Virus record (IMG/VR): IMGVR_UViG_2872185964_000003
Source of the DNA: a virus
Taxonomy: Duplodnaviria; Heunggongvirae; Uroviricota; Caudoviricetes
Reading direction: 5' to 3' (one strand)
DNA length: 26,705 nucleotides
The notes beneath the pieces were generated by a model. The model worked only from the letters and a program-made list of their open reading frames with translations. It did not search any database and was not told the DNA's origin. This document shows positions 5,425-26,705 of the stretch, one piece after another. Numbering within the stretch: the first letter of the stretch is position 1; every line of letters begins with the position of its first letter. The position numbers and the translations under genes were made by a program.

Positions 5425-6533
5425 TTATTCTGTTTCTGCTATCCATTCCGGGATTTTTGCTTCAAGTTCAAGCTGCGTGGTAAAGCCGCTGTTATCAATG
5501 GTGTGCTCGGCTTTTGCAATAATCCAGTCCTGATAATCAATCTCGCTTTTAAAGCCTGTCACTGTGCCATGCATTTCGGGATAGAGTTCTGCACGACCAC
5601 GCGCCAGCGTGATGGAGAATGATGCGGCTCCGCGTTGTAGCTGCTGCCACTTTGCCGCCGCTGCGCGTCTTGCTGCCTGCTCGTTCTGATAAGTCTTGCG
5701 TAACACAAACACGTTGCCTTCCGCACCTTCCATATAGTCGCCTTCCCGACTGCTGCTTTTCTCCTTTTTGGGTTTTGGCGGTTTGCGGCGTTTCACGCTG
5801 ACTTTTTTCTTTTTCCCGTAATTAAGATCAAGCCAGTAGGCGCGTACCCCCGTATACGCCTCGCGGTCAGCAATGCGGAACTGATGGCGATCGCCGCTGC
5901 TGCGTGTAATGGCGAACGAGGGCAACGGCTGCCCCTGTGCGTTCACGCCACCACCTGGCATGATGAATAACAGATTGCCGCTTTTTACCGTGGCGATTGC
6001 TCCCAGCATTTCCGCCATGCGCGTAAGAAAGGACATGTCGCTTTCTTCGGTCTGGTCGGCGTGGTCGATTTCGATATCCATCAGCATTTCGCTGATTTGC
6101 GGTTTCAGACCGTATCGATGAGCGATGGCGGATACCACACGCTCAACGGTCACATCATGCCAGGACACCTCACGTTTAACGTTAAATTCATCCCGAAAAT
6201 CTGCGCTTCTGGCTGAAACAGTCAGCCTGTCCGGCGGTCCTTCGTGAGCGATTTCATCAACAATGTAAGTGCCTTTTTCTGTCAGCGGTTCCCCTTTCCA
6301 GCCAATGAGAACCGTCAGACGCGCGCCCCGTGGCGGTAGCTGCAACTGACCATCCGCATCATCCAGCGTGATGGTGAGCTGGTCCGCCTCAAATCCCCGG
6401 TTGTCGGTCAGTTACAGGCTCATCAGGCGCTCCGCCACGCCTGACAGCGTTTTACCCTCCGAGAGAATATCAAAATCCGGCATTTTCACGGGGCCGTGCC
6501 CTGACTGAGCAATTGCATGGTGGTGTCGGTCAT
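5425..6533 (-). pseudogene. D: P2 gpD-like tail / late control protein, disrupted (frameshift plus TAA nonsense)
   Basis: ATG at 6533 with GGGAGGG RBS. The frame switches near 6489, then reads ...LSGVAERLMSL-TAA(6414..6412)-LTDNRGFEADQLTITLDDADGQLQLPPRGARLTV... into the 306-aa ORF 5425..6345, which resembles gpD. Confidence 0.8.
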
Positions 6534-6689
6534 CTACTCCCTCCCTGTGCGGCATGGTCGCATGTGCGTGCGGAGGGGTTACTGCTTTTTGTTGTCGCCG
6601 TGGCGGGAGAACGGCGCAGGGGTGAGATTACGCGCGTGGTGGGTGATGATTGTTGCTGAATCATTTAACGGATACAAGGGGCTGAAGCT

Positions 6690-7874
6690 ATGAGTGAAAC
6701 TCGTTTTCATGGTGCCCGTGTTACGGAGAATACCGACCTGGTAACAGCGATTAACGATGTTGATTCCAGCGTTATCGGTATCGTGGCAACGGCGGATGAT
6801 GCGGACGCGAAGCTGTTCCCGCTGAACAAGCCCACACTGCTGACCCGCGTCAATGACGTGCTGGGAAAATGCGGGACAACGGGGACGCTTTATCGTGCGC
6901 TTAAGGCCATCGCAGACCAGGTGAGCACAAAGGTGATCGTCGTTCGCGTGGCTGAACACAAAGAAGAAGACGGAAAGACGCAGGATCAACTGGTTATCGG
7001 TGGTTCTGAGGATGACGGCAGCTATACGGGGATGTATGCGCTGCTTGTTGCAGAGCAGGATGAAAGCATCGGATACCGTCCGCGTATTCTGGCCGCGCCG
7101 GAGCTGGACACGGAGGCGGTAACAAAATCCCTGTGCGTGATTGCAGATAAACTGCGCGCGTTTGTGTATGCCTCATGTCATGGCTGTAACACGATGGCCG
7201 AGGCAATTACCTACCGCCAGAAATTCAACGAACGTGAGGTGATGCTCTTATGGCCGGACTTCATCGCCTACAACCCGAAAAATGGCAAAAACGAAACGTT
7301 CCCCGCGCCTGCCTATGCGTGCGGCCTTCGTGCGTACATTGACCATGAACAGGGATGGCACAAATCGCTGTCCAACGTTCCGGTTAAAAATGTGCTGGGG
7401 ATGTCGAGGCATGTGTTCTGGTCGTTGCAGGCCGAAGACAGCGATGCCAACAGCCTCAACAACAAAGAAATCACGACCATTATTCGTCGCAACGGGGTCC
7501 GCTTCTGGGGTAACCGCACACCGGAAACGAACGCCTACATCTTTGAGGTGTATACCCGAACCGCACAGGTGCTGGCTGATTCAATTGCGGAAGCGCAGTT
7601 TGAAACCATCGACAGTCCACTGACGCCTGCGAATGTGAAGGATGTTATCAGTGCCATCAGGGCAAAACTGGATTCACTGGTGACTGCCGGGAAACTGATT
7701 GGCGCGGAGTGCTGGTATGACGTGGTGGATAACAGCACCACGGATTTACGTCAGGGACGTGTGCGTATTCGCTACAAATATACGCCCGTTCCGCCACTGG
7801 AAGACATGGAGCTTTACCAGACGTTTACTGATGAATACTTTGAACCCGCATTTGCGGTGCTGGGAGGTGCCTGA
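6690..7874 (+). CDS. FI: Contractile tail sheath protein (P2 gpFI-like), 394 aa
   Basis: Intact ORF with AAGGGG RBS and a sheath-like sequence; its stop overlaps the FII start (ATGA). Confidence 0.9.
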   Translation: MSETRFHGARVTENTDLVTAINDVDSSVIGIVATADDADAKLFPLNKPTLLTRVNDVLGKCGTTGTLYRALKAIADQVSTKVIVVRVAEHKEEDGKTQDQLVIGGSEDDGSYTGMYALLVAEQDESIGYRPRILAAPELDTEAVTKSLCVIADKLRAFVYASCHGCNTMAEAITYRQKFNEREVMLLWPDFIAYNPKNGKNETFPAPAYACGLRAYIDHEQGWHKSLSNVPVKNVLGMSRHVFWSLQAEDSDANSLNNKEITTIIRRNGVRFWGNRTPETNAYIFEVYTRTAQVLADSIAEAQFETIDSPLTPANVKDVISAIRAKLDSLVTAGKLIGAECWYDVVDNSTTDLRQGRVRIRYKYTPVPPLEDMELYQTFTDEYFEPAFAVLGGA

Positions 7875-8334
7875 TGGCTGTGCCAAAACATCTTCGCTTT
7901 TTTACGCTGTTTGTGGATGGTGAAAACGAAGTGGGTAATGTGACGTCCGTCACTCTGCCTAAGCTGACGCGCAAAACCGACAGCTACCGGGTGGTGGCAT
8001 GATGGGTGCGGTAAGTATTGATCTCGGTCTGGACGACTCCGCGCTTGATGCGAGCTTTGTCATGGGGGCGCAGTTCGTGAGCTGTTCCTTAAGTATGGCG
8101 GCACGATTGACGGCACGCTGCTGCGTTTTGCGGGTGAATACTACACCGATGCAGAAAGCGACCTGTATGAAGTCGAAATGCGCGGACGTGTGACGGAAAT
8201 TGATATGGGGGAAGCCAAACAGGGCGAAGCCACATCACACACTTACGCCATTAAAACACCTACTACAAGCTGAGTGTTAACGATCGCCCGTTGTGGGAGA
8301 TTGACCTGCTGAACTTCATTTACCGGAAGGACGG
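7874..8334 (+). pseudogene. FII: Tail tube protein (P2 gpFII-like), three frame breaks and 3' end truncated by IS1
   Basis: MAVPKHLRFFTLFVDGENEVGNVTSVTLPKLTRK... continues in successive -1 frames (...DLGLDD..., ...LFLKYGGTIDGTLLRFAGEYY..., ...YYKLSVNDRPLWEIDLLNFIYRKDG) and ends at the IS1 terminus. Confidence 0.8.
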
Positions 8335-8349
8335 GGTAATGACTCCAAC

Positions 8350-24602: not shown

Positions 24603-24644
24603 TGAACCGCCCCGGGTTTCCTAGAGAGTGTTTTATCTGTGAAC

Positions 24645-25535
24645 TCAGGCTGCCAGATCATCGTTTCCGATGGAAGCATAATAAGCTTTTTCTGCTTCTG
24701 CCGGAGGAGTATGGCCCAGCCTTTCCAGCAATCGTCGATTATTATACCAGTCCACCCACGTGAGTGTGGCCAGTTCCACTTCTGCACGGTTTTTCCAGCT
24801 CTTACGGTGTATTACCTCCGCTTTGTAAAGACCATTGATGCTCTCCGCCATCGCGTTGTCATACGAGTCGCCTGTACTTCCTGTTGATGCCAGTAATCCG
24901 GCTTCCTTAAGCCGCTGTGTGTAGGCCAGCGATACATACTGAGAACCTTTATCACTGTGATGGACCGTGCCGGACGGTCGACGGGCCCATAACGCCTGCT
25001 CCAGAGCATCCAGCACGAATGTCGTTTCCATGGACGATGAGACCCGCCACCCCACGATGTATCCGGCAAACACATCAATGATGAACGCCACATAGACGAA
25101 GCCCTGCCATGTGCTGACGTAAGTAAAATCAGCCACCCACAGCTGGTCAGGTCGTTCTGCCACGAACTGACGGTTTACGCGGTCGCCTGCGGCAACGGCT
25201 TTCCGGCTGATGGTCGTACGGACCTTTTTACCCCGGAGAACACCGGCAAGTCCCATAACCGCCATGAGACGTGCCACAGTGCATCTGGCCACTCTGATAC
25301 CTTCCCGTAACAACTGACGCCAGACTTTACGCACACCGTATACCTGATGATTCCCATCGTATACGCGCAGTATCTCTTTCTTCAGCCAGTCATCGCGCTG
25401 CGCACGGGCACTGCGTTTATCAGGATGATGTCGCTGTTGCTGACAGTGGTAATACGTTGACGGGGCAATATGTAGTTCACTGCATACCGGTCCGACCCCG
25501 TACAGCTTACGCAGCTTATCCAGCAGTGGCATCAC
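24645..25535 (-). CDS. IS629 orfB transposase, 296 aa
   Basis: Intact ORF with an IS3-family DDE core. Confidence 0.9.
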
Positions 25536-25857
25536 TTTTTCCAGAGGCGGTCGAACTCCGCCTTCGCAAAATAAGCGGAAGCCTGGCGAAGGATATCGTT
25601 ACTGCGGCGCAGTTCACGATTTTCACGTTCCAGCTCTTTCAGACGCTGACGTTCAGCGGTGGTGAGCCCGCCATCACCGCCTCCGGTATCCCGCTCATGC
25701 TGGCGTACCCAGACACGCAGAGTCTCCGGTGTACAGCCAATCTTTGGGGCAATGGAACAAATTGCCGCCCACTGTGAGTCATATTCGCCCTGACTTTCCA
25801 GAACCATACGAATCGCCCTCTGACGGACTTCGGGGAAAAACGAGTATTTTTAGTCAT
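25532..25857 (-). CDS. IS629 orfA, apparent frameshift near codon 9
   Basis: MTKNTRFSP at 25857 is in one frame and ...[24 protein letters not shown]... in another; the break is at TTTTCCCCG (C4). Confidence 0.7.
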
Positions 25858-25911
25858 CCTGTTTACCTCTTTCTCAGGGAGTTTAGTCTCCAGGATTCCC
25901 GGGGCGGTTCA

Positions 25912-26705
25912 GTGCTTATTGACTTGTGGTGGAAATACCACGGCCAGCTAATGAAGTCAGGGCATAACACGCGCCTTAAATTGCTGCGCTTGAGTGAAGC
26001 AATGGATGACCCGTGCGTGCATAAACTTAATACAACGATGCTCACCGAGCTACGTGTGTCCAGGATAGAGCAGGGGATACAGCCCAGCACCATAAATCGA
26101 GAGATTGGGGCGTTAAGCGCGATGTTTACCGCACTCATCTCATCCGGCCATTTTCTTAACGATAACCCCGTTCAAGGCCTTAAAGGAATGAAGGTTAAGG
26201 AGCGCGAAATGGGATATCTGAGTAAGTCTGAATGTGTTCAGTTGCTGGATGCACTGGCTGAAAATCCCGATGAACGACTGGCTGTCGAAATCCTTCTGTC
26301 GACCGGGCGCGATGGGGCGAGGTAGCGGCACTGGAGCAGCGCCGTGTTCTTCATTGTCGAATCACTTTTTCAAAAACGAAGAACAGCAAAAACCGTACCG
26401 TTCCTATTTCTGAAAGCCTGTTTGAAAAGATCAAAAAACGGGGCGGGAAACTGGTGTTTCCGACGCTGGATTATTCATTGGTTCGCGATGTCATCAAAAC
26501 GGTCGCACCTGATGTTCCTGACGGCCAGGCTGTTCATGCGCTGCACCACACCTTCGCCAGTCATTTCATGATGAACGGCGGCAATATTCTGACGCTCCAG
26601 AAAATTCTGGGGCACGCAAAGATTCAGACAACGATGATTTATGCCCATCTTGCGCCGGATTACCTGCAGGATGCGGTGAGGTTTAATCCACTAGGAGGTG
26701 CTTAA
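25912..26705 (+). pseudogene. int: P2-type tyrosine integrase, 5'-truncated by IS629, one apparent frameshift near 26307
   Basis: Begins at the IS629 boundary (...LIDLWWKYHGQ...) and ends ...HALHHTFASHFMMNGGNILTLQKILGHAKIQTTMIYAHLAPDYLQDAVRFNPLGGA with the conserved R, H-x-x-R and Tyr. About 60 N-terminal residues are missing. Confidence 0.85.

Follow-up and report, generated by a model that had tools for sequence, protein, structure and literature searches.

When many reading frames of a prophage are broken by the loss of single bases, do the breaks record gene decay or errors of assembly? The question is raised by the P2-like prophage in IMG/VR record IMGVR_UViG_2872185964_000003, a stretch of 26,705 nucleotides that we call the window. 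An earlier reading made from the sequence alone had listed twelve frame breaks between positions 6480 and 26320, and had proposed that bases were under-called in short G/C and A/T runs on top of real decay. Comparison with near-identical copies of the prophage reveals 21 assembly-specific one-base deletions in the window, every one of them in a run of G or C. These are very probably consensus errors of an unpolished long-read assembly, and they overlie genuine decay.

One-base deletions confined to G and C runs

A closed Shigella genome, CP026872.1 (assembly GCA_002950295.1), matches the window at 100% identity, with 0 mismatches over 17,874 and 20,378 aligned bases. The window was compared with copies of this prophage from about 15 further Shigella assemblies, which bear the same IS2, IS1, IS911 and IS629 insertions (IS, insertion sequence) and were reached by exact-protein look-up with the tail sheath. 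The comparison included the Sanger-sequenced CP001063.1 (S. boydii CDC 3083-94) and the drafts AMKE01, AMKA01, AAVCAW01, AAAAJF01 and AAUYOT01; the 'AA...01' drafts are presumed to be short-read assemblies from the ending of their contigs at IS ends. Also compared were one NCTC (National Collection of Type Cultures) record, CP049281, CP041513 and several records of the CP0267xx-CP0268xx/PTES01/PSSS01 batch. All of these are assemblies of other strains, and each copy was scored only at those of the 21 runs that it covers.

Each comparison with a near copy spans about 10-18 kb and yields just 4-11 substitutions, and for the Sanger and short-read-type assemblies the distance from the window is about 4 single-nucleotide polymorphisms (SNPs) per 10 kb. 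The top matches to the prophage among complete E. coli genomes reach only 96-98% identity. Wherever they are covered, all 21 runs are one base longer in CP001063.1, AMKE01, AMKA01, AAVCAW01, AAAAJF01 and AAUYOT01. Changes private to the window amount to about 5 SNPs, 3 of which lie inside IS copies, the 21 one-base deletions and 1 in-frame repeat-unit change; against the nearest copies it shows no one-base insertion. When aligned to three E. coli relatives, the window likewise showed about 25 one-base gaps, nearly all of which correspond to a homopolymer base lost in the window.

Each of the twelve frame breaks listed by the sequence-only reading was found within about 25 bases of its given position, with a one-base length difference from relatives. 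Nine (6490, 7989, 12900, 14636, 15514, 22859, 24129, 25832 and 26305) are missing from the near-identical Sanger and short-read-type copies, as expected if homopolymers were under-called over real decay, but the other three (8064, 8253 and 19816) occur in every Shigella copy and are not artefacts of this assembly. Twelve further sites had not been listed (260, 2591, 4862, 6575, 10875, 14400, 19198, 20850, 21123, 21698, 22046 and 22483). Since 260, 2591 and 4862 lie to the left of position 6480, the proposed range contains the listed breaks but is too narrow. The proposal that both kinds of run are affected holds for G/C and not for A/T, as the sole frameshift in an A/T run, at 8253, is genuine. 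Comparison with closely related genomes, which the same reading had recommended, therefore separates 21 runs that are longer in the near copies from three frameshifts that are inherited.

The probability of loss rises steeply with run length. When the longer state is taken as true, G/C runs of length 3 are shortened in 2 of 402 cases (0.5%), those of length 4 in 5 of 88 (5.7%), those of length 5 in 12 of 24 (50%) and those of length 6 in both cases (2/2, 100%). None of the 270 A/T runs of at least 4 bases is shortened, and 113 of these have at least 5 bases and 39 at least 6. The difference between G/C and A/T runs of at least 4 (19/114 versus 0/270) is highly significant (Fisher p = 3e-11), as is that for runs of at least 5 (p = 2e-12). 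Indeed, G/C runs of at least 4 occupy only ~2% of the window yet hold 19 of the 21 assembly-specific deletions.

In the left part of the window, the intergenic C run at 260-261 between hok and ogr has two bases, versus three in all other copies, and is assembly-specific. A cargo gene of 1039 amino acids (aa) on the minus strand is broken twice, by an assembly-specific change at 2591-2592 (G2 versus G3 elsewhere) and by a second at 4862-4865 (G4 versus G5 elsewhere) that the window has in common only with CP026867 and PTES01. Gene D (minus strand) is affected at 6490-6493, where G4 instead of the G5 found elsewhere is common only to CP026797 and PTES01, and the intergenic run between D and FI at 6575-6578 (G4 versus G5 elsewhere) is shortened in CP026797 only. 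In the tail tube gene FII, on the plus strand, the run at 7989-7991 is G3 versus G4 elsewhere and is assembly-specific. Near the 3′ end of gene I (minus strand), C4 at 10875-10878 replaces the C5 of the Sanger and short-read-type copies and gives a product of 185 rather than 176 aa; C4 is found also in CP026797, CP026867 and PSSS01.

Four sites on the minus strand lie between genes V and X. Gene V is split into 91 and 98 aa at 12900-12903 (G4 versus G5 elsewhere), and G4 recurs in CP026866 and CP026797, at odds with phylogeny. The lysB/lysC overlap has G5 at 14400-14404 versus G6 elsewhere, with G5 also in CP026797, CP026795 and PTES01, whereas the loss within lysB at 14636-14638 (C3 versus C4 elsewhere) is private to the window record. 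At 15514-15518, one codon before the stop of X, C5 instead of C6 lengthens the product from 66 to 84 aa, a state private to the window among Shigella copies.

The right part of the window holds the remaining ten sites. On the plus strand, the Shine-Dalgarno region 8 nucleotides upstream of P has G4 at 19198-19201 versus G5 elsewhere (G4 also in CP026795), and a private loss at 20850-20853 (G4 versus G5 elsewhere) reduces the C-terminal part of P from 374 to 349 aa. Two breaks in the portal gene Q (plus strand), which the sequence-only reading had left aside, prove to be further sites not found in the Sanger and short-read-type copies: 21123-21126, with C4 versus C5 elsewhere and C4 also in CP041513, CP026795, PTES01 and CP026867, and 21698-21701, with a private G4 versus G5 elsewhere. 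Private losses follow just downstream of Q at 22046-22048 (C3 versus C4 elsewhere) and in intergenic DNA at 22483-22486 (G4 versus G5 elsewhere). The minus-strand gene shortened at 22859-22861 (C3 versus C4 elsewhere, private among Shigella copies), near 22885, had been called a Zn-ribbon gene; it is instead an Ead/Ea22-like gene (PF13935), with 111 rather than 196 aa.

Also on the minus strand, an IS911 orfB remnant has G4 at 24129-24132 versus G5 elsewhere, with G4 also in CP026797 and CP026866, and canonical IS911 is one base longer than the window at this point. The 5′ part of IS629 orfA (minus strand) has G4 at 25832-25835 versus G5 elsewhere, giving 91 rather than 108 aa, and G4 recurs in CP026867. 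Finally, the integrase fragment on the plus strand carries a private loss at 26305-26307 (G3 versus G4 elsewhere).

IS3-family transposases such as those of IS911 and IS629 are normally read across two overlapping frames, so that what looks like a frame break may be no mutation at all; a related IS copy in E. coli O145 RM12275-C1 (CP031341.1) is annotated with a programmed frameshift. We considered programmed -1 frameshifting for the two IS breaks and rejected it, since neither lies at an orfA/orfB overlap and, at each of them, canonical as well as sister copies have one base more (G5 in the other copies). Site 24129 falls in a 542-bp 3′ remnant of IS911 orfB that is without orfA, and the G run at 25832 lies in the 5′ part of orfA, ~300 nucleotides upstream of the IS629 orfA/orfB overlap.

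Adding one base at each of the 21 sites yields gene lengths as called in accurate assemblies. The cargo gene regains 1039 aa, V 193, the Ead-like gene 196 and the integrase fragment 264, the lysB frame is restored, P becomes 211 + 374 aa and Q becomes 97 aa + about 228 aa. FII reaches 106 aa and is still cut short by a real frameshift. Some products of the deposited frames are exceedingly rare: the 137-aa and 739-aa fragments of the cargo gene were found on 1 contig only among about 15 billion proteins, and the 42-aa FII product on 2 NCBI contigs only.

Protein look-ups with the 137-aa and 739-aa products, the 125-aa product of the lysB region and the 211-aa P product did not find a second assembly of the same strain. 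Those with the 125-aa, 137-aa and 211-aa products matched only the window record, unrelated E. coli phages and other strains. Three Logan contigs (L025, L030 and L031) considered as same-strain reads were rejected, since they come from P2-like phages of E. coli that are unrelated and show 16-221 mismatches. The 211-aa P fragment was also rejected as a strain marker, because it matches all members of the lineage and the private SNP at 19556 is silent.

Core flanks and sister records

The same losses are found outside the prophage, which sits between ihfA and btuC. We examined about 13.5 kb of flanking DNA in CP026872.1, comprising 7.9 kb on the left (ihfA, pheT, pheS, rplT, rpmI, infC, thrS) and 5.5 kb on the right (btuCED, nlpC, ydiV, selO). 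The essential gene pheT is frameshifted by a G4 to G3 change and is called with 757 instead of 795 aa; none of the ten other assemblies has this deletion, nor does E. coli, although the flank has 0 substitutions relative to CP001063.1. Frameshifts also affect selO (C5 to C4) and ydiV (G4 to G3; intact in CP026797), and two intergenic runs are shortened. Rates per run match those of the prophage: 3/6 (50%) versus 14/26 (54%) for G/C runs of at least 5, and 2/29 versus 5/88 for runs of 4. The defect extends through the genome and is not peculiar to the prophage.

Sister records differ greatly in how often such losses occur. One-base G/C-run deletions were counted against CP001063.1 for each retrieved locus, giving 12 and 12 at two loci of CP026872 (the source of the window), 10 and 8 at two loci of CP026797, 4 and 9 at two loci of CP026867, and 3 and 2 at two loci of CP026866. 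Single loci gave 6 in PTES01 and 2 in PSSS01, compared with 0 in CP026762, the NCTC record and CP049281 and 0-1 in the short-read-type drafts. For most loci that span position 12019, one counted deletion is really an extra G of the Sanger reference, which explains the single events of the drafts; the same reference event is included in the counts for four batch loci, namely the second locus of each two-locus record. These per-assembly counts contain no A/T-run deletion in the sister records. Nor was a genuine one-base homopolymer insertion found in any record, the apparent ones being edge effects where the alignment meets a 3.3-kb deletion.

CP001063.1 alone carries the extra G, at the equivalent of 12019 in gene J, and gene J is uncalled there. 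Either the frameshift is true and private to this record, or the record is in error.

Assemblies with the same shortened runs as the window are long-read-type records, nearly all from one accession batch. Their distribution does not follow descent: CP026797 and PSSS01 have all lineage SNPs and the 3.3-kb deletion in common, yet are discordant at 12900, 14400 and 24129, whereas the window is without the 3.3-kb deletion yet matches CP026797 at all three sites. Deletions that are recurrent, linked to platform and phylogenetically incoherent bear the signature of systematic error. In CP026797.1 the core gene btuE is also split, into 91 + 110 aa, by a C6 to C5 change, which is further evidence of a batch-wide artefact.

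This pattern has been documented before. The ARAMIS study described systematic losses of a single G or C from runs of 4-6 in PacBio-only assemblies, which occur at high coverage too and truncate essential genes (PMC8574707). Like the window, unpolished PacBio assemblies (RS II, HGAP/Quiver-type) show such deletions in such runs and truncated essential genes, and the deletions are missing from short-read data, as they are at the sites in the window; there is no difference in kind. What sets the window record apart is its high rate, with roughly half of its G/C runs of 5 shortened, more than in sister records (CP026762, for instance, has no such losses). CP0267xx-CP0268xx records are listed as historical strains of the Centers for Disease Control and Prevention (PMC9455713), and one passage attributes CP026832 to the set of Kim et al. 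2018 (PMC10132075). Yassine et al. 2022 left out the closed Shigella genomes that Kim et al. had produced with PacBio, on account of "numerous indels in the homopolymers" (PMC8795385). Our search of the literature, supplements included, did not find CP026872; one paper merely lists GCF_002950295.1 as a Shigella genome.

We infer both the sequencing platform and that the deletions are errors rather than very recent mutations. CP026872.1 would have been assembled from PacBio RS-type long reads, apparently without any short-read polishing. From short G/C homopolymers the consensus caller would systematically drop one base, more often in longer runs, and the result in the window would be 21 false deletions that create or worsen apparent pseudogenes. 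The genes hit would be those for the 1039-aa cargo protein, D, FII, I, V, lysB/lysC, X, P, Q and the Ead-like protein, together with IS911, IS629 orfA and the integrase fragment.

Mutation, decay and phase variation as alternatives

Several observations weigh against assigning all 21 deletions to the assembly. The case is a collective one, and none of the sites has been proven wrong one by one. Membership of CP026872.1 in the PacBio set of Kim et al. is suggested by the CP0267xx-CP0268xx and GCA_00295xxxx blocks in which its numbers fall. At 21123, C4 occurs in five assemblies, among them CP041513, which lies outside these blocks. Proteins in the shortened state are also encoded by unrelated E. 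coli phages, namely gpI and LysB (both 185 aa), an 84-aa X (identical on 289 other contigs) and a 111-aa Ead. Because of these four proteins, a few of the deletions, one or two, could be genuine. The tracts at 10875, 14400, 15514 and 22859 may be naturally variable among P2-like phages, or may have been mis-assembled repeatedly.

The tracts at 15514, 14400, 10875 and 22859 lie mostly near the 3′ ends of genes.

The alternative that survives best, although we consider it very improbable, is that the deletions are real and recent, having arisen in a strain or stock that was a mutator (for example mismatch-repair deficient) with slippage throughout its genome. Strictly homopolymer-associated, genome-wide deletions are what slippage without mismatch repair yields, and the strains are presumably old members of a collection. 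However, mutation-accumulation work in E. coli shows that a mismatch-repair defect chiefly produces more transitions, along with insertions and deletions in both A/T and G/C runs. The window instead has about 5 private SNPs against 21 deletions, 0 insertions and no loss in 270 A/T runs of at least 4, even though 39 of these have at least 6 bases. A mutator must also have frameshifted the essential gene pheT, and several records of the batch would need independent mutators that struck some identical sites.

A more particular version, that the deposited runs are correct and that a historical Shigella stock harboured an undescribed G/C-specific slippage mutator while tolerating a C-terminally truncated PheT, deserves slightly less credence still. 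If it were true, such a mutator would act across the genome, removing single bases from G/C runs of 4-6 and nowhere else, sparing A/T runs and causing few substitutions.

It is extremely unlikely that the 21 deletions stem from the ordinary decay into pseudogenes that follows when selection on a cryptic prophage is relaxed. The prophage is truly defective, as its IS insertions and three common frameshifts attest, and it has a higher density of frame breaks, ~0.8 per kb compared with ~0.37 per kb for the core flanks. This higher density arises because more G5/C5 runs lie in the prophage, and we rejected prophage-specific decay as its cause given that per-run rates equal those of the flanks. The 21 deletions are missing from sister strains whose prophage carries identical IS insertions and has been rearranged in the same way. 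Furthermore, a neutral process would not spare all A/T runs and would bring insertions and substitutions. In their IS2, IS1, IS911 and IS629 insertions, their IS-mediated deletions and the inherited changes at 8064, 8253 and 19816, the lesions of this prophage are of the kind that forms genuine pseudogenes in Shigella, where IS expansion is joined by frameshifts and nonsense mutations, but the 21 deletions differ from these in being incoherently inherited, missing in accurate sisters and equally frequent in essential core genes.

Least probable of all is that the runs are phase-variable contingency loci that toggle gene expression: tract length does differ between unrelated P2-like phages at the 3′ ends of X and I and at lysB/lysC, but these runs have 3-6 bases only where known phase-variable tracts are far longer (typically 8 or more), only shorter states and no insertion states were seen, and the tracts are scattered over coding, intergenic and housekeeping DNA.

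Genuine decay and the true state of the prophage

Beneath the consensus errors lies a set of lesions that belong to the prophage itself. The frameshifts at 8064, 8253 and 19816 and an 11-bp deletion in N are judged to be real because they are present in all lineage copies that cover them, Sanger and short-read-type copies included; such inheritance by the whole lineage, whatever the platform, fails for the 21 sites. Two of these lesions are in FII (plus strand), where the window and all Shigella copies, including the Sanger copy and the drafts, have G5 at 8064-8068, and where 8253-8256 is A4 in the window and all Shigella copies versus A5 in E. coli. At 19816 (plus strand), every copy of this Shigella lineage has a single C in place of the CC of intact copies, which divides the terminase gene P into products of 211 and 374 aa. 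In the capsid gene N (minus strand), the 11-bp deletion is accompanied by small differences at 18028-18098 and is found also in the short-read-type draft L041 and other Shigella copies.

The equivalent of the run at 8064 is G6 in two of three E. coli copies checked and G5 in the third, O145 RM12275-C1 (CP031341.1), where the gene is annotated 'frameshifted'. The same prophage copy (locus 7698-15071) has tube, tape-measure and tail-fibre genes annotated 'frameshifted', and these may be assembly artefacts of the same kind.

Larger changes complete this layer. IS2, inserted at 401-1727, separates the halves of the late-gene activator ogr (331-400 and 1728-1923); this disruption is real and would alone block late gene expression. 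Tail genes between FII and H have been lost through an IS1-mediated event, IS911 and IS629 replace the replication region, and stop codons in D and Q belong to the same layer. The IS insertions and rearrangements are common to sister strains without the 21 deletions, which upholds the view of the sequence-only reading that they are independent of the artefact.

From left to right, the window contains hok, ogr (split by IS2), the 1039-aa cargo gene, D, FI, FII and IS1, followed by H-I-J-W-V-S-R, the lysis genes, X-L-M-N-O, P-Q, the Ead-like gene and a stability gene. A ParM fragment, the IS911 remnant, IS629 and the integrase fragment make up its right end. The cargo open reading frame (2059-5176, minus strand) lies between ogr and D and is intact once the two deletions that appear to be artefactual are repaired. 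RefSeq labels it 'MFS transporter', and Pfam and PADLOC scans of the protein gave no match. In E. coli 12009 a GmrSD-type nuclease occupies the equivalent slot, and the position between ogr and D is therefore a variable cargo slot of P2-like prophages.

Two differences in repeat number separate the copies. In gene Q near ~21270, an in-frame hexamer, CGCTGG, is repeated n times in the window, once more (n+1) in L041 and twice more (n+2) in both L019 and L027. In gene M near ~16386, the copy L042 has an extra 30 bp relative to the window, (TTGCTGCTTT)x3.

The artefact is an ordinary one, already documented in a known data set, and has no bearing on new biology. Its effect is to make a moderately decayed prophage look shattered. 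Late genes I, J, W, V, S, R, lysA/B/C, the holin gene, X, L, M and O are really intact, and the 1039-aa cargo gene is falsely inactivated. Pseudogene calls in CP026872.1 that rest on the loss of one base from a G/C run are not trustworthy. Extrapolating the rate in the flanks (~0.4 per kb) to the 4.7-Mb record suggests errors on the order of a thousand or more, a load that affects any pseudogene census, core-genome multilocus sequence typing (cgMLST) scheme or gene-loss study that uses CP026872.1.

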